Notes: generated from the sequence alone by a model not told the origin. DNA of 64,000 bases from Candidatus Latescibacterota bacterium (GCA_965248435.1 OZ252100.1:1824001-1888000), one strand, 5' to 3'; shown: positions 3 through 60,969, counted from the first letter of the stretch. Made by a program: numbers and translations.

Positions 3-1523
3 CTTTTGGTGATCGGGCTCGGTGCGCTTCTCCCACATAGCATGCAACGCGAGGGGAAGTTCAGGTTCGACGAGCGAAAAACGGATGTCGTCACCACCCT
101 GAGCAAAACATTTTCTCCTTCAGACTCCCGGGGTCGCCTCACCGTGTGGGGCCATACGCTGGAAATGGTAATGGACCATCCGCTGCTCGGTGTCGGTCTT
201 GGGTCCTGGCAGTACGAATACCCACGCTACGATCGAGGAGATTGGATCACTCACAACGTGGCCCCCCAGCGCCCCCACAACGACCTCTTGTGGATCCTAT
301 CTGAAACCGGAATCCTCGGTCTTGCCGCTTACTTGTGGATCCTTCTTACGCTGCTGAAAAGTGTTCGCAATAACATCAAGAATCACCCCGACTCACCCCA
401 GACAACGCTGATTCTCGGTATCAGCCTTGGGATCCTCGCCCTCCTTGGACACAGTATGTTCAGTTTCCCCAGGGAGCGACCGGCCCCTTCGATGATGTTT
501 TGGATGGGGTTAGGTCTTGCGGTCCGACTTGCCCAGGATCGCGATTCAGACCCTCAACCCGTTTCGCTGCAGAAACCACTACTCGGCGCCACGGCTGCGC
601 TGGTGGGTGTCGTGTTGATCTGTGGCGTGGTCTTGACCTACCGCCAGGCAAGGTTCGACGCCCACTACCTCCAGGCGCATCTCGCTTGGCGAAAGGAGGC
701 GTGGCCTAGCGTCGCGTCCGAGACTGGAAACGCCCTTCAGTGGGGTCCCTTCAACCACCGTGCCCTCCTGCTCCGGGGAATAGCATACTGGAAGTTGAAC
801 CGCAGCGAGGACGCGGTGGAGGCCTACGGGACCTCGCTCAAGTATCACCCCCACGAGGGCCACGGTGCCCTCGCGGCCGCCTACGCCGATCTTGGCCGCG
901 TTGAGGAAGCTGCCTCCCACTATCGCGTCGAACTCGATCTTTATCCGCGTTCTGCGGCCGCGGCCTACGGCCTTGCGAATGCCCTCGCCTCGAAGAAAGA
1001 TTGGCCCGGGGCATCGGAAGCCTACTTGAAGATCCGGCAGACACGTCCCGATGACCTCGAGGCCAGGTTGGGCCTGGCTGACGCCTACCGACATCTCGAG
1101 CTGTGGACAGAAGCGATCGCGCTATACAGGGGCATCTTGCAGACCGAACGGGCTACGGCCGACATCCAGATCAAGCTGGGGAGCGTCCTGCAGGCAGTTG
1201 GCGATCTGGCTGGCGCGATAAAGGCCTACTCCGAAGCCGTCAGCCTCTCGATGGAGGAGGATCCAAGGCCATACAATAATCTGGGCGCAGTCTACGCACT
1301 GGAGAATCGCTATGGAGAAGCCGAAAAAGCATACAAGAAAGCGCTTGAGCTAGACCCGGACTATGGACGTGCCTACCATAACCTGGGGGACCTCTATGCG
1401 GCACAAGGGAAGGCCAAGCCTGCAATAAGGGCCTATCAAGAATTCATCAAGAGATGGACAGGTGATCCCCGATTCGTCGAGCTCGCCGAAAGCAAGATTC
1501 AGGACCTGAAAGATCGACCCTGA
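3..1523 (+). CDS. O-antigen ligase (Wzy_C) family membrane protein with C-terminal TPR repeats; 5'-truncated by window edge
   Basis: Frame open from window start. Motif R..W..TLEMV.DHPLLGVGLG.W...YP...RPHNDLLWILSETGILG typical of Wzy_C/WaaL; TPR repeats (YNNLGAVY, YHNLGDLY). Stop overlaps next ATG. Confidence 0.85.
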   Translation, partial: LLVIGLGALLPHSMQREGKFRFDERKTDVVTTLSKTFSPSDSRGRLTVWGHTLEMVMDHPLLGVGLGSWQYEYPRYDRGDWITHNVAPQRPHNDLLWILSETGILGLAAYLWILLTLLKSVRNNIKNHPDSPQTTLILGISLGILALLGHSMFSFPRERPAPSMMFWMGLGLAVRLAQDRDSDPQPVSLQKPLLGATAALVGVVLICGVVLTYRQARFDAHYLQAHLAWRKEAWPSVASETGNALQWGPFNHRALLLRGIAYWKLNRSEDAVEAYGTSLKYHPHEGHGALAAAYADLGRVEEAASHYRVELDLYPRSAAAAYGLANALASKKDWPGASEAYLKIRQTRPDDLEARLGLADAYRHLELWTEAIALYRGILQTERATADIQIKLGSVLQAVGDLAGAIKAYSEAVSLSMEEDPRPYNNLGAVYALENRYGEAEKAYKKALELDPDYGRAYHNLGDLYAAQGKAKPAIRAYQEFIKRWTGDPRFVELAESKIQDLKDRP

Positions 1524-3478
1524 TGTCCGACATTCGATCTGAAAAGACCTCCCGTCTTGTGGCCTTTGCCTGCTCGACCCTTCTGGTTCTGGTCCCACTG
1601 ATATACTGGACCAGCCTCAGGGACTATGTCCTTCCCCCAAAACTCATCGTCCTCCAAGCCGTCGTGGCACTGACGTTTGCGGCGTGTCTGATCATCAGAC
1701 CGGAGTCGATCCCTGTCCCTTCCTTCGGCCTGCCAGCCTGTGCCTACCTCATACTCAATTCAGTTTCGGTTCTCTACGCCGCAGATCCCGTCGTCGGCCT
1801 CCACGAATTGAACAAGATGCTGAGCGGTTTTCTGCTCTTCCTGCTCGTCGCCAACTGGCTCCGCCCACGCGACGTTCCCCCAATCCTCGTGGCGGGAGCC
1901 GCGTGCGGAATCCTTGTCTCACTTGTGGGCATCTCAGAGTACCTGGGATGGCGACCCTTTATCATTCCCTCAGCCGGGCTCCCGAGCGCAACCTTCGGAT
2001 ACCGAAACCTGGCCGCTATGTACCTGATCCAGTCTATCCCGCTTTGCATCGGGTTGTTCGCGATTGCGCGCTCGAGAGGAATCGCGGTCCTGGCCGCTTC
2101 GTCCGGGGCGCTCATGCTCGTCTTCCTGATCTACACGAGAACGCGGGGTGCCTGGGCCGGCCTGATCGGAAGCTTGTTGATCACACTGGTCATCTGGACC
2201 GCAACACGATCACGAAGGCCTATCTCGCACGCGCGTTTGTCCGTCGCGAAGAAGATCAGCGCCGTTGGGGCCATCCTCCTCGTCGCGGCCATCGGCTGGC
2301 TGCCCTCCAACCTGCCCAAAATCGGGCCTCAGAGTATCGACGAAAAGAAGGCATCGATCGCTACGGCCTTCACATCCGTAGCCGAGCAAGGGGCTGGTCG
2401 GGGCCGCCTCATCCTGTGGAAGCATACATTGGAGATGGTCCAGGATCACGCAGCCCTCGGCGTCGGCCTGGGCAACTGGGCGGTACACTATCCTCTTTAC
2501 GACCGGGGAGACCCAATCACCTTCTCCGCCGCGCCGGAGCGTCCTCACAACGACGCCCTCTGGATTCTCTCCGAGGTCGGCCTTCTGGGATTCATATGCT
2601 ATATCTGGCTAGCGATTTTGGTCCTCAAGGCCGTTTGGAGACACCTGGCTTCGTCGAATCAGCAGACCCGATGGATGGCCGCCGCCTGTTTTGCGAGTCT
2701 CCTGGCCATATCGGGACACAGCCTCTTTTCGTTTCCTCGGGAACGGATTCCGCCCACCATGCTCTTCTGGTTGAGTCTGGGGCTCCTGGCTGCACTGGAG
2801 AGACCCGCTCGTAGGGTCTGGAGGGCCTCCGCGACCCGGGTGATGCTCATCCTGGCCCTCTTGCTGGCCCTCCTCCAGTTCCGGTTCACGATGCGCGTGT
2901 GTGACTTCGAAGCTCACACGCAGGCCGCGAGAAACGCGCAGCTCGAAAACGACATGCCCAAAATGTCTCACGAAGCGGCGGCAGCACTCGACGCGGGGGC
3001 CTTCCATCCAGAGGCGATTCACTTGAAGGGCTATGCGTTAAACCAAATGGGGGAATTTCCGAAATCCAGAGACCTGTATCGTTCAGCCCTTCATAAGCGG
3101 CCGTACGATATCCAACTGCTCAACGGAATGGCCATCGCCTCTCAAAATATCGGACACCACGAGGAGGCACTCGGTCTTTATGGCCGAGCGCTCGAGCTGA
3201 TACCGAATCTTATCGATATCCGCTACAACCAGGGTGGGCTCTACACAAAAATGGGTCGCCTGACCGAAGCGATCAACGTCTATCAAAAAATCATTGAGCA
3301 GCGGCCCGAAGAAGCTCAGGCTCATTTTGCCCTGGGTGATCTGTCTAACCGCCTGGGACGCCTCCTGGACGCTGTGGAGTCATACAGGGCCTTCCTCAAA
3401 TACTGGAAGGGTGACGCCCGATATGTAGAAATGGCCCAAACTCGAATTTCAAGAATTGAATCTTTGAAGATGAGATGA
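1523..3478 (+). CDS. O-antigen ligase family membrane protein with C-terminal TPRs
   Basis: Many TM helices; SATFGYRN, YTRTRGAW, LGVGLGNW, RPHNDALW motifs; TPR tail; TGATG coupling with upstream gene. Confidence 0.88.
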   Translation: MSDIRSEKTSRLVAFACSTLLVLVPLIYWTSLRDYVLPPKLIVLQAVVALTFAACLIIRPESIPVPSFGLPACAYLILNSVSVLYAADPVVGLHELNKMLSGFLLFLLVANWLRPRDVPPILVAGAACGILVSLVGISEYLGWRPFIIPSAGLPSATFGYRNLAAMYLIQSIPLCIGLFAIARSRGIAVLAASSGALMLVFLIYTRTRGAWAGLIGSLLITLVIWTATRSRRPISHARLSVAKKISAVGAILLVAAIGWLPSNLPKIGPQSIDEKKASIATAFTSVAEQGAGRGRLILWKHTLEMVQDHAALGVGLGNWAVHYPLYDRGDPITFSAAPERPHNDALWILSEVGLLGFICYIWLAILVLKAVWRHLASSNQQTRWMAAACFASLLAISGHSLFSFPRERIPPTMLFWLSLGLLAALERPARRVWRASATRVMLILALLLALLQFRFTMRVCDFEAHTQAARNAQLENDMPKMSHEAAAALDAGAFHPEAIHLKGYALNQMGEFPKSRDLYRSALHKRPYDIQLLNGMAIASQNIGHHEEALGLYGRALELIPNLIDIRYNQGGLYTKMGRLTEAINVYQKIIEQRPEEAQAHFALGDLSNRLGRLLDAVESYRAFLKYWKGDARYVEMAQTRISRIESLKMR

Positions 3479-5775
3479 GGAATCCTGTGTCCCGAACCGC
3501 CAAGCTGGGCTCGACACTGATCACCGTTTCCCTTTCTGCGATGGTCGTGTCCGTGCCCCTTGTCTACATGGAAGGCGTGTATGAGTACGCCCTCTTGCCG
3601 AAACGCCTGGCCCTTCACCTTTTCATCACACTCGCCCTGATCGGCTGGTTCCTCCAATCCGGTTTGGGAAAAGACTTCAGACAGTGTTCAAGCCCGCTCC
3701 ACTTACCGATCATCTGTCTGCTGTGCGCCGCCCTGCTTTCCACGCCACGGACAACGCACCCGCTCGACTCCCTTGTACAGCTGGCGTATCAGGGGAGCTT
3801 CCTTGCCCTGTTCTGGATCGCAGCCCACGCGATGTCCGTCGGGCGCCTGGTAACACTCCTCTGGGCGAACGCTATTGTCGGTCTCCTCGTTGCCGTGATC
3901 GGCATCCTCCAGTACCAGGGTCTGGAGATTTTGCTGCGCATTCCCTCGAACGGCCAGCCGAGTGCAACCTTTGGTTACCGCAATTTCGCAGCCATGTACC
4001 TCGTCTGCGCCCTCCCGCTGAACGGAATTCTCTTTCTCACGACTCGCAGGGTGGCAGGCCTTCTTCTTTCCTCCGCTTCAGTGACCTTAATGGGCGTCTA
4101 TCTCATCTATACACGAACACGGGGCGCCTGGGCTGGTGCGATGGGAGCACTTCTCATTGTTGCCACAACGGTTGCCCTATACCCCGGTCTTCGGCAAACC
4201 CTTGTGAGTGCGCTGCGCGCAGGACGATGGCCGCTGAAGAGAAACCTCATAATCGGAGGCATTCTCTTTTGGATTATCCTTGGCGTCCTCCCCGCCCGCT
4301 TCCAGGGGATCGGACTGCAGCGCTTCGATGAGAAGAAGGCCGGAATTGGTTCAACAATCGCGTCTCTTACTCGTGGACGACCGGATCGCGGCCGTTTGGC
4401 AATGTGGCGAAATACCATCGACATGATTCGGGACAAACCCCTTCTCGGCGTGGGCCCCGGAGGCTGGAAGCGCGTTTACCCGGCTTACGACAGAGGAGCC
4501 ATGATCCGGCCCGATTCGTCTCCTAAACGCCCTCACAACGACTACCTCTGGATCGCCTCCGACCTCGGACTGATCGGTCTTGGCGTCACCCTATGGTTTC
4601 TGGTCGTCCTGTTTCGATCGCTCCTTGAGCTATCTCGGCATCCACTGGAATTCTGGCGCCTGACTGCCCCTATGTTCGCAATCTCCTTGCTGGCCACCTT
4701 CGGCCATGCCCTCTTCAGCTTTCCTCGTGAACAGCCACAAGCCGCCATGTACCCATATCTCCTTGCGGGGATCGTCGCGAGTGTCGTGTCGACACATCGA
4801 GTTAGAGCCGCTCCCGCATTTCTTTCTCCGCTTGCCCTCGGGTTGCTTTTCACCCTTCCACTTTCCGCTGGATGGCTTACCGCACGTCAGATCGGGTTCG
4901 ACAGACATTACCTTCAGGCCCACGTCGCCGAAGATCGGAGTGACTGGACGGATATGCTCCAGGCAAGCGAGGCTGCGGCGGACTACGGGATCTTTCGCCC
5001 CCACGTACTTGTGATTCAGGGAAGAGGTGAGGAAAAGAAAGGGAGGTACGACAAAGCGGAGAAGGCCTACCAGAGCGCCCTCGACTATGAACCTCACTCC
5101 TGGCACGCCTATAACGGGCTTGGCGTGGTATACAAGCGGCAACAGCGATACCAGGAGGCGCTCCACGCCTACAAACAGGCGCTGGAGATCTTTCCGTCGG
5201 CCCCCGCTGTGAGAAATAACCTGGGCGCGCTCTACCGGAGCTTGGGTGACCTGAAACGTGCGGAGGCGGAATATCGCTACGTGCTTCGCGGCGACCCGAC
5301 CAACGCGGGAACTCTGAACAACCTGGGGAATATTTACAAGGCCCGGGGTCAGCTGGACGATGCCAGGGTGACCTATTTGAAAGCGATCGAGAGCGACTCG
5401 ACGCTCGCGACCGCACACTTCAACCTGGCCGATCTTTATCGCCTGGAGGGTTCGTCCGGCGAGGCCATCACATACTATTTGAAGGCCGCCCGCTTGGCCC
5501 CACGCAACGCCTCGATCCCCTGGGGACTGGGGATGGCGCTTGAAGCAAGCGGAGACCTCGACGGGGCGGAATCGGCTTACCGCGAGGCCATTGCCATTCG
5601 CTACGATTTTCCGGAGGCCTACTTCAACCTGGGAAACGTGCTGTTCACGAGACACCTCTACAGGGAGGCCCTCGATGCCTATCGCAGCTTTATTGGCATT
5701 TGGGAAGGAGAGTTGAAATTCGAGAAATTTGCGAGGTCAAGAATCGAGGAGTGCGTCAAGAGGATAAAAAAATAG
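3475..5775 (+). CDS. O-antigen ligase family membrane protein with long TPR array
   Basis: Same motifs (SATFGYRN, YTRTRGAW, LGVGPGGW, RPHNDYLW); multiple TPRs (YNGLGVVY, NNLGALY, NNLGNIY, FNLGNVL); ATGA overlap. Confidence 0.88.
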   Translation: MRNPVSRTAKLGSTLITVSLSAMVVSVPLVYMEGVYEYALLPKRLALHLFITLALIGWFLQSGLGKDFRQCSSPLHLPIICLLCAALLSTPRTTHPLDSLVQLAYQGSFLALFWIAAHAMSVGRLVTLLWANAIVGLLVAVIGILQYQGLEILLRIPSNGQPSATFGYRNFAAMYLVCALPLNGILFLTTRRVAGLLLSSASVTLMGVYLIYTRTRGAWAGAMGALLIVATTVALYPGLRQTLVSALRAGRWPLKRNLIIGGILFWIILGVLPARFQGIGLQRFDEKKAGIGSTIASLTRGRPDRGRLAMWRNTIDMIRDKPLLGVGPGGWKRVYPAYDRGAMIRPDSSPKRPHNDYLWIASDLGLIGLGVTLWFLVVLFRSLLELSRHPLEFWRLTAPMFAISLLATFGHALFSFPREQPQAAMYPYLLAGIVASVVSTHRVRAAPAFLSPLALGLLFTLPLSAGWLTARQIGFDRHYLQAHVAEDRSDWTDMLQASEAAADYGIFRPHVLVIQGRGEEKKGRYDKAEKAYQSALDYEPHSWHAYNGLGVVYKRQQRYQEALHAYKQALEIFPSAPAVRNNLGALYRSLGDLKRAEAEYRYVLRGDPTNAGTLNNLGNIYKARGQLDDARVTYLKAIESDSTLATAHFNLADLYRLEGSSGEAITYYLKAARLAPRNASIPWGLGMALEASGDLDGAESAYREAIAIRYDFPEAYFNLGNVLFTRHLYREALDAYRSFIGIWEGELKFEKFARSRIEECVKRIKK

Positions 5776-18945: not shown

Positions 18946-19060
18946 CATTCGGCGATCCGTATGACTCGCACAACGTGGTTGCTCGCAGCTTGATTCCAGT
19001 AGGTTGCCCTATTACAATCTGGCTTATGCCCGAGTCACAATGCATTTGAAGCACGACGTA

Positions 19061-19822
19061 ATGTCTAAGGTCATTGCCATCGCCAATCAGAAGGGAGGTG
19101 TGGGTAAAACCACGACTGCGGTTAACCTTTCTGCATGTCTGGCAGCTGCCGAGAAGAAGACGTTACTCGTAGATATGGATCCGCAGGCCAACGCGACCAG
19201 CGCTTGCGGGGTTTCATTAGAAGACCAGGTTCCTTGTATCTATGAAGTGCTGGTCGATGAACTGCCTTTGTCAGAGATCGTTCAGGAAACGGAGGTGCCC
19301 TACCTAAGCCTGGCCCCCTCTCACGTCCGCCTCACAGGCGCCGAAGTCGAAGTCGTCAGCATGATGTCAAGGGAACGCCTCCTCCACGCCGCCTTGGCGC
19401 CCATCCGTGAGGAGTACGACTACATCCTGATAGACTGTCCGCCCTCCCTTGGACTCCTGACGATCAACGTACTGACGACTGTGGACGCCATACTCATTCC
19501 GATCCAGTGCGAGTATTTCGCCCTCGAAGGGCTAGGAAAACTCCTGAATACATTGAAGCTTGTGCAGAAGCACCTCAATCCCGATCTCAAGATTGAAGGC
19601 GTGCTCCTTACCATGTTCGACGGCCGGCTCAATCTTTCCCGACAGGTCGCAGACGAAACCAAGGAATACTTCGGAGAGAAGGTTTTTAGGACAGTTATCG
19701 GTCGAAACGTAAAACTTGGAGAAGCTCCGAGTTTTGGAAAACCCATCATCCTCTACGACATCATGTCCAACGGGGCGCAGAACTACATTAACCTGGCCGG
19801 TGAGGTAATCAACCATGGGTAA
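19061..19822 (+). CDS. parA: Chromosome partitioning ATPase ParA/Soj
   Basis: [42 protein letters not shown]. Confidence 0.95.
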
Positions 19823-20711
19823 AAGGAATGCCCTTGGCAAAGGACTCGGGGCGCTCATCCCGGGAGCCGAAGGCGAAACTTCCACGTTTCCTCACGAAGC
19901 CCTCGGCCAGACAGACGTCACAGGGCACAAAATCGTAGAGATCAGTACCTCGGACATCGAACCCAGTCCACACCAACCTCGCATAGAGTTTACCCCCAAA
20001 GCGCTCGATGAGTTGGCCCAGTCGATCGAGGAGAAAGGAATCATCCAGCCGCTCACTGTTCGAAAGTACGGGTCCGGATATCAGCTGATCGCAGGAGAGC
20101 GCCGCCTCCGCGCCGCAAGACAGGCCGGCTTGAAATCTGTACCGGCGATCTTGCTCTCCATCATTACGGACGAAGAGGCGATGGAGATATCTTTAATCGA
20201 AAACATTCAGCGAGAGGATCTCAATGCCATCGAAGAAGCGATGGCCTATCGGACGCTGATGGATGAGTTCCAATTGTCGCAGGAGGAGCTGGCAAAGAAA
20301 GTCGGCAAAGATCGGTCCACAATCTCCAACATGCTTCGACTTCTCAAGCTTTCTCCCGAAGTTCGTAGCGCGCTCGAGAAGGACCAGATCTCTATGGGGC
20401 ACGCGCGCGCGCTTCTCGGAATTCCGGACCAGAAGAATCAGGCCCACCTGTGTCGAAGAATTATCGCCCAGGGGCTGAGCGTACGAAAGACGGAGATCCT
20501 GGTTGCGGCCTCCCAAGAGGGTCGTGCATCGATCCGGAAGCTTCCCGCCAAAACCCCAGATATTCTTGCTGTGGAAGAGGACCTTCAGCGCCAGTTCGGT
20601 ACAGCGGTCAACATTCTACGGAAGGGTCATAGGGGAACGATCGAAATTGAATTCTACAGCGATGATGACCTAGAACGCCTTCTTGACATCCTTAAAGGAA
20701 GTTTCCTCTAG
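19815..20711 (+). CDS. parB: Chromosome partitioning protein ParB/Spo0J
   Basis: [51 protein letters not shown]. Confidence 0.95.
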
Positions 20712-53394: not shown

Positions 53395-54186
53395 TCAAAT
53401 CCTGAGAAACGACTCCGGATTATCCCATTGTCCCTTTTCGTACTGAAACTTCACTGTCTTATCCACTAAGATTTGCCCGTCCTCCGACAACACGATACGC
53501 GCCCGCTCCAGGGGTCTTGGGGCAGGTCCCTCGAAGTTGATCCCCGTGGAATAGAACCCGCTTCCGTGACACGGGCACTTGAATTTCTGTTCGTTGACAA
53601 GCCAGTTCGGCGTACACCCCAGGTGTGTGCAGACTGAAATGAGGGCGAACATCCCATCTGTATTCCGGACAATCCAGATGGCGAACTTGTCTTTCCATCG
53701 CTCGTCTACTGCCCCCATCGCATACTCATCGGGAAAACCGATCTTGAAAAATTGGGGAGGCTCGAACAACACGTTCGGAAACATGAAACGAGCAGTCGCC
53801 AGAAGACCCGCGGTACTCGCCGAAGCGAACGCGACCCAGGCAAGAGCCAGCCAGGAGAAGAATCCCCTGCGAGTCGTAATCCCCCCTTCTAAGACCGACT
53901 GCATTCGGGGCGGTCCCGGCCTGACAGACCTGGGCGCCGGAGAGGTCTGAATCACCACCTCGCGCTCCTTGGAACCCTCCTCTTTCTTCGCGGTCAAACT
54001 CCGCGCAGCCGAGGCCCGATCGGCAGCCCCTTCAGCCTTCTTTGCCGGTGCCTTCGCCGCCGGCTGCGAGGGAGCATCGGTCCCGCCCCCGCGCGCCTTG
54101 CGCATGGCTTCCGCCTTTGCCTTCGCCCTTGCTACGCGGTCCGGGATATCATCGAATGAAGAAAGATCTACATCTTCCTCAGCCAT
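53395..54186 (-). CDS. Rieske iron-sulfur protein with ~100-aa N-terminal extension
   Basis: CTHLGC and CPCHGS; Tat motif TRRGF followed by TM helix. Confidence 0.95.
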   Translation of the reverse strand: MAEEDVDLSSFDDIPDRVARAKAKAEAMRKARGGGTDAPSQPAAKAPAKKAEGAADRASAARSLTAKKEEGSKEREVVIQTSPAPRSVRPGPPRMQSVLEGGITTRRGFFSWLALAWVAFASASTAGLLATARFMFPNVLFEPPQFFKIGFPDEYAMGAVDERWKDKFAIWIVRNTDGMFALISVCTHLGCTPNWLVNEQKFKCPCHGSGFYSTGINFEGPAPRPLERARIVLSEDGQILVDKTVKFQYEKGQWDNPESFLRI

Positions 54187-55462: not shown

Positions 55463-55490
55463 TTGACAAGGCAGAACAAAGCGCTATATT
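55463..55490 (+). promoter_or_regulatory. Sigma-70 promoter of the ferredoxin gene
   Basis: TTGACA-N16-TATATT; the ORF-track TTG start at 55463 coincides with this -35 box. Confidence 0.65.
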
Positions 55491-55549
55491 CCCCCCTCGA
55501 CGGACGAATGCAGAGCCTGGTGCCACCTACTTCAAATAAGGAAAACTAT

Positions 55550-56299
55550 TTGGTTGACGTCGATCTGTCTCAATTCGATGATATCGCCGATCGAGTGGCC
55601 AGAGCCAAAGCGAAATCCGAAGCTCTACGAAAGGCGAAAAGCGGCGAAGACAGTGGGGATTCGTCCCCCGGTCTGTCCGCACAACCGACTGCGGAAGAAC
55701 CAGTTAGCAAGGCTGTCGAGGCAACCGCCGGAAAGACAGCTGTGACTGGACTTCAAATCCTGGAATTTGCCCTTGGGACGCATTTCAAATTGAAAGGTCG
55801 AGCGGGCAGGGTCATCGGCACGCGGTATGACCTCGTCAGTTTTGTGTATGACGATGATCCCGGGCAGACGGTGACGGCGGATCGATATCGATTGAGCAAC
55901 GCCTATGCCGAAGGAGCCCTCGAGTTTGCGCCCAAATCTGAGGCCTATCGCCCCGATCGGGTCAACAAGACGGATCGAATTGACTACCACGAATATGTCT
56001 GGCTCGACACCAGGAAGGGGATGACGGCAAAGAAGAAACGACCGCGCTCGATTGCCATCATCAACCCCGATTATTGCACGGGGTGCGACGCCTGTATCGA
56101 AGTATGTCCAACCGATTGCATTGAAGAAGTGGACGTGGCGGACGCAGGTCTGGATGGGATCGGAAGCTTTTGCGAAGTTCGGCTCAGTGACTGCATCGGG
56201 TGCGTCCAATGCGTACACATCTGCCCGTGGGAAGCCATCGACATGGTCGATACTGATAAAGTAGAGGACGCGTACGGACTCCCCACAGGCAGCCTATAG
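55550..56299 (+). CDS. 2x[4Fe-4S] ferredoxin-domain protein with N-terminal peptide shared with the Rieske protein
   Basis: CTGCDACIEVCP and CIGCVQCVHICP; TTG start at 55550 with AAGGA SD. Confidence 0.88.
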   Translation: MVDVDLSQFDDIADRVARAKAKSEALRKAKSGEDSGDSSPGLSAQPTAEEPVSKAVEATAGKTAVTGLQILEFALGTHFKLKGRAGRVIGTRYDLVSFVYDDDPGQTVTADRYRLSNAYAEGALEFAPKSEAYRPDRVNKTDRIDYHEYVWLDTRKGMTAKKKRPRSIAIINPDYCTGCDACIEVCPTDCIEEVDVADAGLDGIGSFCEVRLSDCIGCVQCVHICPWEAIDMVDTDKVEDAYGLPTGSL

Positions 56300-56319
56300 G
56301 CATTCCGTCAATTCGTTCT

Positions 56320-56354
56320 ACGGAGACCGGGAGTGACTCGGCCTCCGTTTTTTT
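56320..56354 (+). terminator. Intrinsic terminator after the ferredoxin gene
   Basis: ACGGAG.CCG...CGG.CTCCGT stem followed by a T run. Confidence 0.75.
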
Positions 56355-56391
56355 ATGACCACAAACCGCCAAACAGCAGTTAAAATAAGGC

Positions 56392-56421
56392 TTGACTTCG
56401 CTGACATAATGTCTATATATT
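56392..56421 (+). promoter_or_regulatory. Sigma-70 promoter of the TPR-actin cassette
   Basis: TTGACT-N16-TATATA or N18-TATATT; palindrome GACAT-A-ATGTC in the spacer. Confidence 0.55.
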
Positions 56422-56649
56422 GTGACAAATTAACGAGTAAGCATAACATCTTGGTGGCATCGGTTCTCCCCCCGCTCAAGTGACCGCTTTTTTTCTCCAC
56501 GGAGATCTAGCCTCAGGTCCGGTTCCTAGTAGACCTAATCAGTCAGGCATCTCTTCTCACCAAAACCGTCCAGGCTCTCATTCTGAGCACTGGACGACTC
56601 CCAGTCTCCTTTGAGCTGTATCGTCAGATTCGCCTGAGGAGGAATCCCA

Positions 56650-57570
56650 TTGCAATCAGGGGAATCCATTAGCCGTCAGAAGAAGCAAGATAAGTCAGCT
56701 TCTTCATCTGCCTCTGCAAGTCAGTCACGCCCTAACCCCGAAAACCGAACCCTTGAGACATTGACCGAATACATGGGCTCCGACGCAGGCCTCAAAAGGA
56801 CCGCCATCTCGACATCTGGTGGAGACGAACGTCTGGATAGAGACCCGGATAGGTCCCCTGGTTCAAAGGAAAGGCTCCTCCAGGAGTGGGAGATCGAAGA
56901 CTCGGCCGAAGCAGGCCCTCCTTCCGAAGAGGATCTGCTCAAGCGGATGGAGATTCTGGAAACACGGCTTGACGCCTTCGAAACCACCTGCTACACCTTC
57001 CTTCTCTATGCCAAACAGCTTACCGATAGAACCGTTTCGTTTTTCGAAGACATTTTTGGTCTTGGCCAGGATGACCTTGCGCAGATTCACGACCGACTTG
57101 GTGTAAACTACAACAACAAGGGTGACTACGAAAAAGCCGTAGAGGCATTCAAGAAGCTCGTGGAAATAAACCGCACCCCAGCTTCCTGCTTTAAGCTGGG
57201 CGTCGCCTCGGACAACAATGGAGACTTTCAGGGAGCCATCGAAGCACTCCGGACAGCAATCTCCATGGACAAGGAATACCTCAAGGCCTACTACAAACTG
57301 GCGGAAGTCTACGCCAGAGTCGAAAACTTTGGAGAAGCCATCAGATTTCTCACACAGGCAACAGAGATCGATCCGAAAAATGACGAGACACAATACAGAC
57401 TGGGCAATGTGCACAGTGCACGGGGGAGTTACGACCAGGCGATTGCCGCGTTCAACAAAGTACTGAAATCGAATCCGAGCTTCCCGGGCATTTATCAGAG
57501 CCTTGGAATCGCCTATGAGCAAAAGGGCGATCAACCCAAAGCCCTGGAGTTCTTTAAAAAATCAATCTAA
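56650..57570 (+). CDS. TPR protein, MamA-like, with disordered N-terminal extension
   Basis: TTG start with GAGGAGG SD; five TPRs ending GIAYEQKGDQPKALEFFKKS; pre-TPR helices LD....Y..L.YAK.L....V.FF...F....D resemble the MamA N-terminal segment as I recall it. Confidence 0.75.
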   Translation: MQSGESISRQKKQDKSASSSASASQSRPNPENRTLETLTEYMGSDAGLKRTAISTSGGDERLDRDPDRSPGSKERLLQEWEIEDSAEAGPPSEEDLLKRMEILETRLDAFETTCYTFLLYAKQLTDRTVSFFEDIFGLGQDDLAQIHDRLGVNYNNKGDYEKAVEAFKKLVEINRTPASCFKLGVASDNNGDFQGAIEALRTAISMDKEYLKAYYKLAEVYARVENFGEAIRFLTQATEIDPKNDETQYRLGNVHSARGSYDQAIAAFNKVLKSNPSFPGIYQSLGIAYEQKGDQPKALEFFKKSI

Positions 57571-57580
57571 TGCGGTTACC

Positions 57581-58012
57581 TTGAGCATACGAGCCCTGAC
57601 AAACCGCCTGCGAGAAGAGCAGATAGAAGCCCTGAGGCAGAGAAAGTATGCGCCTTTGACGGCCGGGCCTCCGAGCGAGCCTGCCGTGCCGGCGCGGGCC
57701 GAGCCCGAGGTTAGAGAAAATAATGAATCGTCCTCTCTGGCCGAAGCCGGGTTTTCTGCCGATCCATCCGGACAGAACGACATTCCCAAGGTCGGGTTGC
57801 GCTTTCAGAATCGCGATGCGCGTTGGCAGGTGCCGTGCGGCATCGTCGAGCGTTTCGGTCTTTCTGCCTTTAACGAAACTTTTCCAGAAACAGCGACGAT
57901 TCCCGCCAACTCCAATTCAGACGTTCAGGACGAGCCCGGGGAGGAAGTGGAACCGGCATACTCCACTGTAGACCCTGAGCCGATAACGATCGAACTGCAA
58001 TCACACAAGTAG
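57581..58012 (+). CDS. Acidic Pro/Glu/Ser-rich hypothetical protein
   Basis: Open frame filling the gap between the TPR and actin genes; TTG at 57581 is a tentative start; low complexity with one short hydrophobic island (WQVPCGIVERFGLSAF). Confidence 0.55.
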   Translation: MSIRALTNRLREEQIEALRQRKYAPLTAGPPSEPAVPARAEPEVRENNESSSLAEAGFSADPSGQNDIPKVGLRFQNRDARWQVPCGIVERFGLSAFNETFPETATIPANSNSDVQDEPGEEVEPAYSTVDPEPITIELQSHK

Positions 58013-58090
58013 ACATCCAGAAACGGGTTGTTTCTCGTCCCGTAGCTCGGGAAAGCGTGTCCAGAGGTCAAGAAGAAGGGGAAGGGAAAA

Positions 58091-59098
58091 ATGGCTGAAG
58101 AAACCAGATCGGACGCCACCGGCGGGTTCGCCACGCAGCAGGGCAACGGGAAGCCGCTTTCTTTGGGCATCGACCTGGGCACGGCAAACAGTGCGGTTGC
58201 GACCAGCACCGACATCACGCGAACCGTACCGAGCGTGGTGGGGTGGCCGAAGGATCTGGTTGCCTTTAAATTCCTGCAAAAGCCCATTGTATTTGGTGAA
58301 GAGTGTATCAGAAACCGCATGTCGCTCGACATCTTCTACCCGCTCGATAAAGGGGTCCTTAAGTATAGACCCGATTCCTCGAGGTATGACGACGTGCCGG
58401 GTGACAACCGTGAGGTGGCCGCAGTCGAAGAACTCGTAAGACACGTCGTGGATTTGGCAGAAATTCGATCCGGAGACGCTGTCCGTGCTGTGGTCGGATC
58501 ACCAGCGCTCGCAAGCGCCAGTGATAAACAGGCATTGGTTGAAGTAATGCGGAATCTGGTCGACTCCGTGATGGTCGTGTCAGAGCCCTTCCTGGTCGCA
58601 TACGGCCTTGGCCTTTACAACAACGCCCTCGTAGTGGATATCGGAGCAGGGACGCTTGACCTCTGCAGGATGCACGGCACTATCCCGGACGAGTCCGACC
58701 AAAGAACGTTGTACCATGCCGGAAACTCCATCGACGAAAACTTTCATTCGCTCCTGCAGGAAAAGGTGAAAGACTCGCCCATTTCCCTCCATTTCGCGAG
58801 GAGCATCAAGGAACGCTATGCCTTCGTTTCGCCAATAACAGAAGGCATCAGCGTTGAGTTTCAAGTTGAGGGGAAACCGGTTCTCTATAATATCGCAGAT
58901 GAACTCAAGGAGGCCTGCGAGGGTATCCTGCCGGATATGCTCGAGGCGATTCGGGAGTTGTTTACGACCTTCGAGCCGGAATTTCAAGATGAGCTTCGAA
59001 ACAACATCATCTTGGCCGGCGGAGGAAGTCAAATCAGAGGTCTACCAGAAGTCATCGAGGCCAACCTCGCCGAATTCGGACCAGCACGGCGTCGATGA
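58091..59098 (+). CDS. mamK: Actin-like ATPase, MamK-like; C-terminus frameshifted as assembled
   Basis: LGIDLGT, SVVGWPKD....K.L......G.E.......LD..YPL..GVL (MamK-type rather than MreB-type), VVSEPFLVAYG, VDIGAGTLDLC, P..Q..L..NIILAGGGS.I.GL. Confidence 0.75.
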   Translation: MAEETRSDATGGFATQQGNGKPLSLGIDLGTANSAVATSTDITRTVPSVVGWPKDLVAFKFLQKPIVFGEECIRNRMSLDIFYPLDKGVLKYRPDSSRYDDVPGDNREVAAVEELVRHVVDLAEIRSGDAVRAVVGSPALASASDKQALVEVMRNLVDSVMVVSEPFLVAYGLGLYNNALVVDIGAGTLDLCRMHGTIPDESDQRTLYHAGNSIDENFHSLLQEKVKDSPISLHFARSIKERYAFVSPITEGISVEFQVEGKPVLYNIADELKEACEGILPDMLEAIRELFTTFEPEFQDELRNNIILAGGGSQIRGLPEVIEANLAEFGPARRR

Positions 59099-59174
59099 TC
59101 CCATCTACGCGGGCGCACTTGGTGCGCTCAAGCTTGCCCAGGATATGCCCCCCAGCGAGTGGGAAAACGTCTAG
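59091..59174 (+). pseudogene. Out-of-frame C-terminal segment of the MamK-like actin
   Basis: +1 frame encodes VDDPIYAGALGALKLAQDMPPSEWENV*, the expected connect-2 and terminal helix. Confidence 0.8.
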
Positions 59175-59215
59175 AAAACTCACCCTTGCTTTAACCCTCA
59201 TCCACTAATATTTCC

Positions 59216-59830
59216 GTGTCCGACACTCTCCTGAATCTCCAACTCGATCAGATCGACCAGCGAAGTTTGCCGCTTCGTCAACGATTGGGTAGCAGCGAAC
59301 TCGAAGAGCTGAAACGATCCATCCAACGATATGGCGTCATCGAACCCGTTGTCGTTGCCCAGTCAGAGTCAGGCTACAAGCTCGTTGTCGGCAGAAGAAG
59401 ATTTGAGGCGTGCCGACTTCTCGGGCTGGAGACCATTCCCGCGATCGTACGAAAGATGTCCGACGAGCGGGGCCGCGAACTCTCTTATCAGTCAAACCTT
59501 CAGAGTGAGATGCTCAATCTGGCCGACGAGGTCGAATTCCTTCGTAGCATCGACATATTCCACCTACCCGATGAAGAAATCGCCAGTCGATTTGGCATGT
59601 CCCCCGAGGAAGTCTCCGTGGCGAAACGGTTTAATCGTCTACCGCCCCCGCTTCGGGAGGCCGTGCGCACTGGAGAAATCGATGAACGTCGCGCACTGGC
59701 CTTGACTCGACTCTCAGGTGAGGTCGAGCAGACGCGGTTTTTTCGCTACATCCAGCAAAACGATCCACCTCTGGAAATCTTGGAAAAGAGGATAGACGAA
59801 GCCCGAGACGGGACCGCGGCACATATCTAA
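59216..59830 (+). CDS. ParB/Srx-fold protein with degenerate HTH and no C-terminal domain
   Basis: EL..SI..YGVIEP.VV.......LVVGRRR..A...LG..TIPA.V, SNLQ.E.LN; 204 aa; GTG start. Confidence 0.85.
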   Translation: MSDTLLNLQLDQIDQRSLPLRQRLGSSELEELKRSIQRYGVIEPVVVAQSESGYKLVVGRRRFEACRLLGLETIPAIVRKMSDERGRELSYQSNLQSEMLNLADEVEFLRSIDIFHLPDEEIASRFGMSPEEVSVAKRFNRLPPPLREAVRTGEIDERRALALTRLSGEVEQTRFFRYIQQNDPPLEILEKRIDEARDGTAAHI

Positions 59831-59853
59831 CGTTCAGACAGACTTGCAAGTGT

Positions 59854-59887
59854 AAAGGCCCCGCCGGACTGATCCGGTGGGGCCTTT
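59854..59887 (+). terminator. Intrinsic terminator closing the TPR-actin-ParB cassette
   Basis: AAAGGCCCCGCCGGA/TCCGGTGGGGCCTTT stem. Confidence 0.75.
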
Positions 59888-59920
59888 GCGCTTTTCGCAT
59901 CATCAAACAATCAAACCCCC

Positions 59921-60969
59921 GAGTTCAATAAGGAAGTGCAACACTTAGGGTAGCAACTGTCCTATCCTAAGTGTATGGGAAACAATTACAAGCATCTTAC
60001 GATAGACGAACGCGAGCAGATTGCGCTTTGTCGAGCCACTGGTGCAAGCCTTAGAGATATTGCCAAGGCCCTTGACCGGAGCGCCAGCACGATTTCAAGA
60101 GAGTTGAAACGTAATCCGTCCCCGATAGCTGAGAGTTACTCGGGCCTCCAGGCTCACAGAAGGGCTGAGAAACGTAAGCGGGAGGCCGGCAAGCGGAAAC
60201 GGCTGAAGAATCCGGTTATCCGGCGATATGTCGAGACCAAACTCAAGCAAGGATGGTCTCCCGAGTTGATCGCTGGGAGGCTTCCCGAGGAGCGTCCGAG
60301 CGCGGGTATCAGCCACGAAGCCATCTACCAGTATATCTACGATCCAAAGGTGCACAAGCAGCGGGATCTGGTTGCTTGCTTATCCCGAGCTCACAAAAAA
60401 CGAAAGCCGCGGTGGCATACCCGAAAACACCGGGAAAGCCACATTCCAGGCCGTATTTCGATCGATCGACGTCCCCGTTACATCGAAAAACGGAAACAAC
60501 CTGGCCACTGGGAATCCGACACCATCATCTCTCGTGAGAGCAAACAGGCCGTTGGCGCTTGTCTTGAGCGATCGTCGAGATACCTACACCTGGCTAAGCT
60601 GGCAAAGAACGGACCCTCGGAGGTCGCCGAAGCGATTAATCGACGCCTTGGGCGACATCCTCCCCACATGAGGAAGAGCATCACATATGACAACGGATCC
60701 GAAAACGGCCAACATCAACGGGTCAACGAGGTGCTTGGCACCAAATCCTATTTCTGCAAACCGTTCCACAGCTGGGAGCGAGGCGCTGTGGAAAACGCTA
60801 TCGGTCTGGTCCGCAGATACCTCCCCAAGAAGACAGACTTCTCAAAGGTCAGCAAACACGAGTTAAAGAAAATTCAGAACCGGATCAACAACCGACCAAG
60901 AAAATGTCTTAACTTCAAAACACCAGCTGAAGTCTTCAAGTCCAAGTGTTGCACTTAGTCATTGAATCC
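59921..60969 (+). mobile_element. IS30-family insertion sequence
   Basis: 26-bp imperfect terminal IRs GAGTTCAATAAGGAAGTGCAACACTT / GGATTCAATGACTAAGTGCAACACTT (21/26 identical) flanking the transposase. Exact ends (plus or minus 2-3 bp) and target duplication unresolved. Confidence 0.9.
59975..60958 (+). CDS. IS30-family transposase
   Basis: YKHLT..ER, RSASTISRELKRN, WSPE.I, GHWE.D, ITYDNG.E, WERG..EN, NNRPRK.L.FKTP.E. Confidence 0.96.
   Translation: MGNNYKHLTIDEREQIALCRATGASLRDIAKALDRSASTISRELKRNPSPIAESYSGLQAHRRAEKRKREAGKRKRLKNPVIRRYVETKLKQGWSPELIAGRLPEERPSAGISHEAIYQYIYDPKVHKQRDLVACLSRAHKKRKPRWHTRKHRESHIPGRISIDRRPRYIEKRKQPGHWESDTIISRESKQAVGACLERSSRYLHLAKLAKNGPSEVAEAINRRLGRHPPHMRKSITYDNGSENGQHQRVNEVLGTKSYFCKPFHSWERGAVENAIGLVRRYLPKKTDFSKVSKHELKKIQNRINNRPRKCLNFKTPAEVFKSKCCT

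Follow-up and report, generated by a model that had tools for sequence, protein, structure and literature searches.

A conserved four-gene cassette with a MamK-family actin in a Latescibacterota genome that lacks magnetosome biomineralization genes

The actin MamK of Magnetospirillum magneticum AMB-1 (NCBIfam NF040964; PDB 5ljw, 5jyg, and 5ljv) is the closest described relative of the protein considered here, and excerpts of Uzun et al. (2020; PMC7449369) state both that homologues of Mam proteins exist outside magnetotactic bacteria and that, of 2798 MamK-like sequences from metagenomes, only 227 share a scaffold with other Mam proteins. Two MamK relatives without magnetosomes are in print, saltatorellin of the Saltatorellota (10.1101/817700) and Bbp, the "big bacteria protein" (PMC10580974), for which excerpts of the respective reports propose roles in shape change and in large cell size. 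Here we examine a 64,000-nucleotide stretch from a marine Candidatus Latescibacterota bacterium (GCA_965248435.1, OZ252100.1:1824001-1888000; hereafter the window), in which positions 56650 to 59830 carry genes for a TPR protein, an acidic protein, a MamK-family actin, and a short ParB-like protein. Like saltatorellin and Bbp, this actin is MamK-like and occurs without magnetosomes; unlike them, it belongs to another lineage and has TPR and ParB partners, which those excerpts do not mention. An operon of a MamK-type actin with TPR and ParB-like proteins was not found in the literature either, as judged by titles and abstract openings. We favor, with moderate confidence, the reading that the four genes form an accessory, chromosomally fixed MamK-family filament operon with three partners, independent of magnetosomes.

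A first-pass annotation, made from the sequence alone, had described four co-oriented genes between a promoter and a terminator, and the open reading frames (ORFs), a promoter-like site, and a hairpin are all present. Its labels for the four products also agree with Pfam and NCBIfam, the acidic product having no family. Positions below are counted from the first letter of the window.

56392-56421, + strand: promoter-like sequence TTGACT-18-TATATT, 10 of 12 consensus matches
56650-57570, + strand: TPR protein gene, 306 amino acids, with a TTG start behind AGGAGG
57581-58012, + strand: gene for the acidic putative linker protein, 143 amino acids, isoelectric point 4.59
58091-59098, + strand: MamK-family actin-like gene, cut short by a premature stop that follows the loss of 8 bases behind 59088
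59091-59174, + strand: remnant of the actin C-terminus, out of frame (VDDPIYAGALGALKLAQDMPPSEWENV), within ORF 58854-59174; 24.5 bits against MamK model positions 303-330
59216-59830, + strand: short ParB/Noc-type protein gene, 204 amino acids
59848-59893, + strand: terminator-like hairpin 3' of the ParB-like gene, with 21-nucleotide arms that are 86% complementary
59975-60958, + strand: IS30-family transposase gene, outside the cassette and strain-specific; 279.5 bits, cut-off 80

Sequence comparison places the actin in the MamK family in the wide sense. The truncated product encoded in the window scored 358.1 bits against the MamK model (cut-off 400), followed by BeeR at 182.1 and MreB at 61.4. 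An intact actin, P0001 (363 amino acids, 97% identical to the window actin), reached 400.1 bits, and the copies in two related genomes, G038 and G004, reached 398.9 and 389.2, so that the cassette actins sit at the family threshold (389 to 400 bits versus 400); an actin from another host family (L135, family f4) scored 417.1 and a control MamK, that of L065, 530.1. The nearest solved chains were MamK 5ljw, 5jyg, and 5ljv, at 274 to 277 bits over residues 22 to 361, ahead of 8r2n (131) and MreB (33). The protein shares with MamK a full-length alignment and the motifs GIDLGT, SEPFLVAYG, DIGAGTLD, and AGGGSQ, which we take to be actin-fold motifs; it differs in its genomic setting, in its partners (a long TPR protein, a new acidic protein, and a ParB-like protein), and in the truncation of its gene here. 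Four MamK-type motifs had been listed in the first-pass annotation, and all are found in the sequence, with GAL.LA...P...W in a different frame, that of ORF 58854-59174; the 8-base break in the gene had been overlooked there. Besides MreB, the host genome encodes one MamK-type protein, the cassette actin.

We built two actin trees, a quick one with 106 rows and a careful one with 67 rows. In both, the cassette actins form one clade (100/100) and, together with the f4 actins, a larger clade (100/100). In the careful tree, this larger clade is sister (93/95) to a 100/100 clade of actins from L065, L053, L069, L052, L078, and L087. Of the latter, those of L065, L053, and L069 have a magnetosome context. 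The cassette lineage is sister to this magnetosome-context MamK clade and not nested inside it, and the actin is not placed among MamK proteins in the strict sense. Identity of the cassette actin to magnetosome-context actins (L052, L053, L065, and L069) is only ~41 to 42%. In the quick tree, two more magnetosome-context actins (L026 and L016) were placed elsewhere, and actins of Beggiatoa (L089) and Zetaproteobacteria (L085), which at a guess are Bbp, lay far from the cassette clade. Among 80 loci with a related actin, five have Mam-like neighbors beyond MamA, three have a TPR match only, and 72 have none, as counted with neighbor queries from one alphaproteobacterial cluster, which could miss divergent clusters. 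One locus in the sister clade, a contig of Magnetococcus sp. DMHC-6 (L052), has no neighbor resembling the Mam proteins of L065 within 19 kb, and its actin gene may be an additional mamK-type copy, detached, of a genus that is magnetotactic.

The host genome (G000; 5.67 Mb in 2 contigs, 97.5% complete) lacks magnetosome biomineralization genes. Models for MamB, MamM, and MamQ had no match in it. The MamE model matched HtrA-type proteases only, at no more than 167.4 of 800 bits, the MamO model generic protease/PDZ sequences at no more than 84.7 of 800 bits, and the MamP model PDZ stretches only, at 25.5 of 300 bits. Searches by phmmer with MamI, MamJ, MamM, MamN, MamQ, MamB, and MamS of L065 returned nothing from this genome, MamL not being among the queries, and neither MamM nor MamO was above cut-off in four other cassette-bearing genomes (G004, G008, G038, and G079). 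The window itself had been described as free of further mam genes, and none was present among its ORFs scanned. The accompanying suggestion of a split or relict magnetosome locus is not supported by the mam searches of the host genome or, for MamM and MamO, of the other four. A separate observation concerns metal transport: the MamB/MamM cation diffusion facilitator (CDF) models, which matched in 13 of 14 control genomes, had no match in the host genome at E<=0.001, and this organism may be without any CDF-type metal exporter.

The four genes are one conserved unit. They come and go together, at a site flanked by a ferredoxin-domain gene and an RluD-type pseudouridine synthase gene. The actin was found in 30 of 168 genomes of the phylum, the host included; without the host, it occurs in 2/21 genomes of family f1, 6/31 of f2, 3/3 of f3, and 18/76 of f4, and in none of the 36 genomes of ten other families. 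The TPR and acidic genes flank it in 12 of the 30 actin loci, all in f1, f2, and f3, and the ParB-like gene comes last in 11 of these 12, the twelfth locus ending before that position is reached. In G004, G008, and G038, synteny with the window extends from ~39 kb to the window end. In G001, from the same genus, and in G002, G003, and G007, the RluD-type gene directly follows the ferredoxin-domain gene, with all flank genes kept and the cassette cleanly absent. In G079 (identical to L012), the downstream flank differs and the four genes are still together. Purifying selection acts on each of the four genes in relatives: between G081 and G082, at synonymous divergence (dS) of ~1.0 to 1.3, the ratios of nonsynonymous to synonymous substitution rates (dN/dS) are 0.057, 0.338, 0.032, and 0.078 for the TPR, acidic, actin, and ParB-like genes, respectively. 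Conservation of the four genes in related genomes, which the first-pass annotation had proposed as a check, is borne out by synteny in 12 loci of three families, and the stand-alone cytoskeletal system that it had offered as an alternative is supported by this synteny, by the selection on the genes, and by the sister position of the actins.

The 18 f4 actin loci have neither TPR nor ParB neighbors. In five that we examined, genes for a 178-amino-acid coiled-coil protein (in three) and for Gfo/Idh/MocA-like proteins come after the actin gene, a second and different partner set for the same actin lineage. In L135 (6712-10545; G098) and the matching loci L136 and L137, this set comprises the coiled-coil protein, with N-terminal MGI..FLT..RLK and C-terminal KIMGNLT(R/K)W, the Gfo/Idh/MocA-like protein, and a 301-amino-acid protein without a family.

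The TPR protein of the cassette has an acidic, Ser-rich N-terminus, a helical stretch at residues ~76 to 150, and, extending as far as the C-terminus, a TPR domain of five repeats. It matches many TPR families (TPR_2 at 1.1e-32). Like MamA (NF040959; PDB 3vtx and 3as4), with whose whole model its repeat domain is co-linear (positions 9 to 199 of 204), it scores on that model, but at 146.3 bits it remains under the cut-off of 200, as does every copy scored (145 to 166 bits; 145.3 in G004 and 165.7 in L012), whereas true MamA proteins of L065 and L053 score 251.4 and 228.3. No other protein of the genome matches the MamA model as well (147.8 bits versus 87.3 for the second of 109 matches), and none gives a better single-stretch match to either of the two MamA proteins, but by full-sequence phmmer it ranks only 7th and 5th. 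Unlike MamA, it has an extension of ~115 amino acids at its N-terminus and the pre-TPR stretch at residues ~76 to 150, its most conserved part, which MamA lacks. The resemblance in size to MamA noted in the first-pass annotation does not hold (306 amino acids, versus 225 in L065 and 222 in L053). Among 76 relatives, 61 share at least 56% identity and form a close family that drops straight to generic TPR proteins (<=112 bits), and none of the 76 carries the name MamA. Within the PDB, designed consensus TPRs and OGT outscore MamA against it; because the designed proteins dominate the list, solved structures say little about a likeness to MamA. We regard the likeness to MamA as weak, given scores below the family cut-off and no bridging relatives. 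One ORF of G038 (L102, 11072-11992), a 187-bit phmmer match to the cassette TPR protein, was assigned to no NCBIfam family at 1e-10 and is perhaps a divergent copy, or else in the wrong frame over part of its length.

The acidic protein (24 Asp plus Glu versus 14 Lys plus Arg) has no Pfam or NCBIfam family. Its ORF was listed mechanically from 57503, and we took its start to be the conserved TTG at 57581, where relatives read MS(I/V/L)R.LT. Three short conserved motifs, N-terminal MS(I/V/L)R.LT..L.EE, central (I/V)PGGI(A/V).RF, and C-terminal ITIELQSH, are spaced by variable acidic, proline-rich linkers; the C-terminal motif is present in f1 and f2 and missing from f3. In this strain, the central motif (57836-57850) reads VPCGIVERF, with PGG in 11 of 12 copies. 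A profile of the protein retrieved only 41 representatives (69 to 215 amino acids, mostly aligned end to end) from 1.84 billion proteins, and the gene is present in all 12 cassette loci. A parallel with MamJ had been drawn in the first-pass annotation. The two proteins are alike in being acidic and rich in low-complexity sequence and in gene position, immediately 5' of the actin gene, the place that mamJ occupies in L065, but they share no sequence likeness (a phmmer search with L065 MamJ had 0 matches in the host genome). The acidic protein belongs to a separate, narrow family and is at most an analogue of MamJ.

The ParB-like protein scored 69.1 bits on ParB_N (cut-off 26.3; 3.3e-19), 36.1 on HTH_ParB (22.6; 7.4e-9), and 88.3 on TIGR00180 (58.45), and its nearest solved chains are Spo0J (6sdk and 1vz0), ParB (7bnr), and Noc (7ol9). 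It shares with these chromosomal proteins the ParB N-terminal and helix-turn-helix domains, and the Gly and both Arg of GxRR, as well as the Asn, are invariant. Unlike them, it has no ParA encoded in its operon, the only parA lying at 19004-19822, and its boxes are changed, GERR to G(R/Q/K)RR and ENxQR to QSNLQ in f1 and f2 or to QENLH in f3. Compared with the canonical ParB encoded in the window (19815-20711), which with the cassette copy makes up the only two ParB-type genes of the genome, ~30 N-terminal and ~57 C-terminal residues are missing. In the terms of the ParB CTPase literature, we take these ends to be the ParA-stimulating peptide and the dimerization domain, respectively, and GxRR and the Asn to be residues of the cytidine triphosphate (CTP) pocket. 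The canonical parS consensus had 0 matches in the genome at <=1 mismatch and 4 at 2 mismatches, none of them in the window.

In the sequenced strain, the actin gene is broken. Eight bases are missing behind 59088, leaving the last 28 codons out of frame, and the window actin ends in EFGPARRR and a stop at 59098, where P0001 reads EFGPARVSRVDDPIYAG in the alignment and continues to its C-terminus, GPARVSRVDDPIYAGALGALKLAQDMPPSEWENV. We compared public sequencing runs over 56300-60100 (X1, X5, X7, and X14). A separately built contig of X1 (organism A), which is probably the source culture, matches the window without a difference over 56300-59946, deletion included. Since the deletion is in both the assembly and this contig, an assembly slip is ruled out, provided that X1 is the source culture; it is not an independent sample. 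The same 8 additional letters behind 59088, which restore the frame, are found in a 52.6-kb contig of X5 (a seawater metagenome), in a contig of X7 (from a different study), and in a 566-nucleotide contig of X14 (an RNA library), so that all three environmental runs compared, two seawater metagenomes and one metatranscriptome, hold the intact allele. Other indels of the X5 contig fall in the noncoding leader, just past the ParB-like stop codon, or in frame (6 bases at 56707), and the contig diverges from the window at 59876, ahead of the IS30 gene. Contigs of the RNA library match portions of the actin gene, of the ParB-like gene, and of the junction between the TPR and linker genes, but DNA carry-over is possible, and they are not proof of transcription. 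With the final 28 residues of its actin lost to the deletion, the module is probably inactive in this strain. The IS30 family has 31 full-length copies (98.7 to 100% identical) and 3 partial copies in the genome, and contig depth is ~1150 to 1630 over IS30 versus 44.8 over the flank; the copy next to the cassette has no counterpart in G004, G008, or G038. The IS30 expansion and the 8-base deletion suggest a strain that is accumulating lesions.

How might such an operon work? The actin would polymerize into dynamic filaments, as MamK does, and the TPR protein would serve as a scaffold. The acidic protein may be a flexible linker whose three motifs dock onto the filament and the TPR groove; TPR proteins typically bind conserved C-terminal peptides. 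The short ParB-like protein, with its helix-turn-helix and CTP-pocket residues kept and its dimerization and ParA-contact parts lost, would tie the filament to a cargo, most likely a DNA site or nucleoid region; the module would then be a device that positions or segregates its cargo by means of actin. The step to a DNA cargo is tentative and, in our view, rather doubtful; the other steps in this chain deserve somewhat more confidence. A complex prediction for the actin, residues 70 to 306 of the TPR protein, and the acidic protein gave scores of 0.00 and 0.04 (mark, 0.32), which say nothing either way. By inference only, the module would resemble the type II partition system ParMRC in combining an actin-like nucleoside triphosphatase with a DNA-binding adaptor in one operon. 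It differs in that its actin is of MamK type and not ParM, its adaptor is of ParB type and not the ribbon-helix-helix protein ParR, and two extra proteins are encoded; furthermore, it lies on the chromosome, and the searches for a plasmid match, for repeats, and for a centromere found none. At its most specific, the proposal is of a positioning machine in which a MamK-type filament, via a MamA-like TPR scaffold and an acidic linker, is coupled to a stripped-down CTP- and DNA-binding protein of ParB type, moves or anchors a chromosomal region without ParA, and, given its position as sister to the magnetosome MamK clade and its own TPR partner, preserves the kind of cargo-positioning module from which the MamK/MamA/MamJ chain apparatus was recruited. 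Taken as a whole, that proposal is speculative and unlikely to be right in every part.

Several observations weigh against a dedicated four-protein filament system. We infer, rather than observe, the contacts among the four proteins and the formation of a filament. The cassette is missing from 37 of 40 relatives (the actin is in the other 3), and this strain has it in broken form; cells can therefore do without it, at least in culture. Since the f4 actins have neither neighbor, the filament does not need TPR or ParB partners. Lacking the C-terminal dimerization domain, the ParB-like protein cannot act as a canonical sliding clamp, and the Glu of its ENxQR box is replaced by Ser in f1 and f2; because of the missing domain and the altered box, it may be only a regulator of the operon. 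The search for a DNA site of the ParB-like protein found none: palindromes common to at least three of five cassette loci all lie inside the actin gene, with none in the noncoding parts. Finally, the rows of the actin trees were picked by likeness to the query, the root is a single long MreB branch, and the bootstrap was not fully settled.

The main rival to a filament operon that engages DNA builds on the possible regulatory role of the ParB-like protein: the filament would serve cell shape, polarity, or a cargo other than DNA, and the ParB-like protein would be a transcription factor of the operon, like its KorB, VirB, and SbnI-type relatives. We consider this possible, if on balance doubtful. 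Besides the lost dimerization domain and ParA-contact peptide and the altered ENxQR box, it would account for the lack of a parS-like site, and the conserved block of the promoter region that extends beyond the two hexamers could be an operator. The f4 actins work without any ParB, and the roles proposed in excerpts of the saltatorellin and Bbp reports are of the kind that this explanation envisages. Yet each of the 11 loci with a ParB-like gene has it at the operon's end, the gene is, by its dN/dS, as constrained as the structural genes, and the invariant GxRR and pocket Asn would be needless for a plain repressor.

Much less probable is that a mobile element's partition or maintenance module, comparable to ParMRC, became integrated into the chromosome. 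An actin-like ATPase paired with a DNA-binding adaptor, the patchy spread among the 40 relatives, and the IS30 copy that adjoins the cassette would fit such an origin. However, the insertion site and flanks are the same in two families, and the upstream flank is common to a third; no integrase, replication, or conjugation genes lie alongside the cassette, and the IS30 copy is strain-specific. A tblastn search of 72,556 PLSDB plasmid records with the actin gave no match at E<=1e-10, and the actin tree roughly follows host families. Least probable, and largely refuted, is that the cassette stems from a magnetosome cluster, as a relict or a detached part, in an organism that is or was magnetotactic or keeps the rest elsewhere: the best NCBIfam matches of the actin and of the TPR protein are each magnetosome families and the actins are sister to the MamK clade, but the mam searches described above speak against it, as do the subthreshold MamA scores of all TPR copies tested and the fixed site of the cassette among respiratory and housekeeping genes.

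For the flanking and noncoding parts of the cassette, we note the following. The promoter-like site lies inside a block conserved in G000, G004, and G008 and is separated from the TTG start of the TPR gene by a leader of ~230 nucleotides, which had no Rfam family at gathering score; the idea of a riboswitch or other RNA was dropped. A sigma-54 reading of a conserved TGGCAC...TTGG block was rejected by eye, the spacing being wrong and the block not conserved in G000. The hairpin at 59848-59893 was not flagged in the consensus scan and was seen in an inverted-repeat search, which over 56250-60000 returned this terminator, short repeats in or beside coding sequence, and one pair in the spacer ahead of IS30. 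An origin-proximal location was also dropped: the cumulative GC skew has its extremes at ~0.22 and 3.0 Mb, which puts the window (1.82 to 1.89 Mb) at mid-replichore.

The remainder of the window consists of ordinary chromosomal genes, among them those for Wzy_C-TPR proteins, PPDK, a class-V aminotransferase (cysteine desulfurase-like), a ThiF-family protein, a PurF-like amidotransferase, a sigma-54 response regulator, cytochrome oxidase, and a Rieske/cytochrome b cluster, as well as parA and parB (19004-20711). This canonical parA-parB pair lies ~36 kb upstream of the cassette, likewise at mid-replichore and not near an origin. At 1523-5775, and on contig C1 of the genome at ~1.815 to 1.830 Mb, there is a run of 650- to 900-amino-acid paralogues with a Wzy_C O-antigen-ligase-like membrane domain and C-terminal TPRs. 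The genes directly upstream of the cassette encode a Rieske protein (53395-54186, - strand), a ferredoxin-domain protein (55463-56299, + strand), and, between these two, a HEAT-repeat protein; all three are kept in relatives with and without the cassette, and we rejected them as cassette members because cassette-less relatives retain them. The Rieske and ferredoxin-domain proteins have in common an N-terminal stretch of ~25 amino acids, D.S.FDDI.DRVARAKAK.EA.RKA, which a pattern search of the genome recovered from these two ORFs only and which could be a docking or targeting peptide.

Outside the magnetotactic bacteria, MamK-type actins abound, and they have hardly been studied. The cassette gives such an actin a defined and conserved trio of partners, a presence/absence series in close relatives, and an apparently cultured host, and its cargo and mechanism are thus directly testable. 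In practice, the actin gene is broken in this strain, and an intact allele must come from relatives. If it is true that the ParB-like protein links the filament to DNA, the cassette would combine bacteria's two main segregation toolkits in a new way. Both the actin's place as sister to MamK and its MamA-like partner bear on the origin of the magnetosome cytoskeleton.

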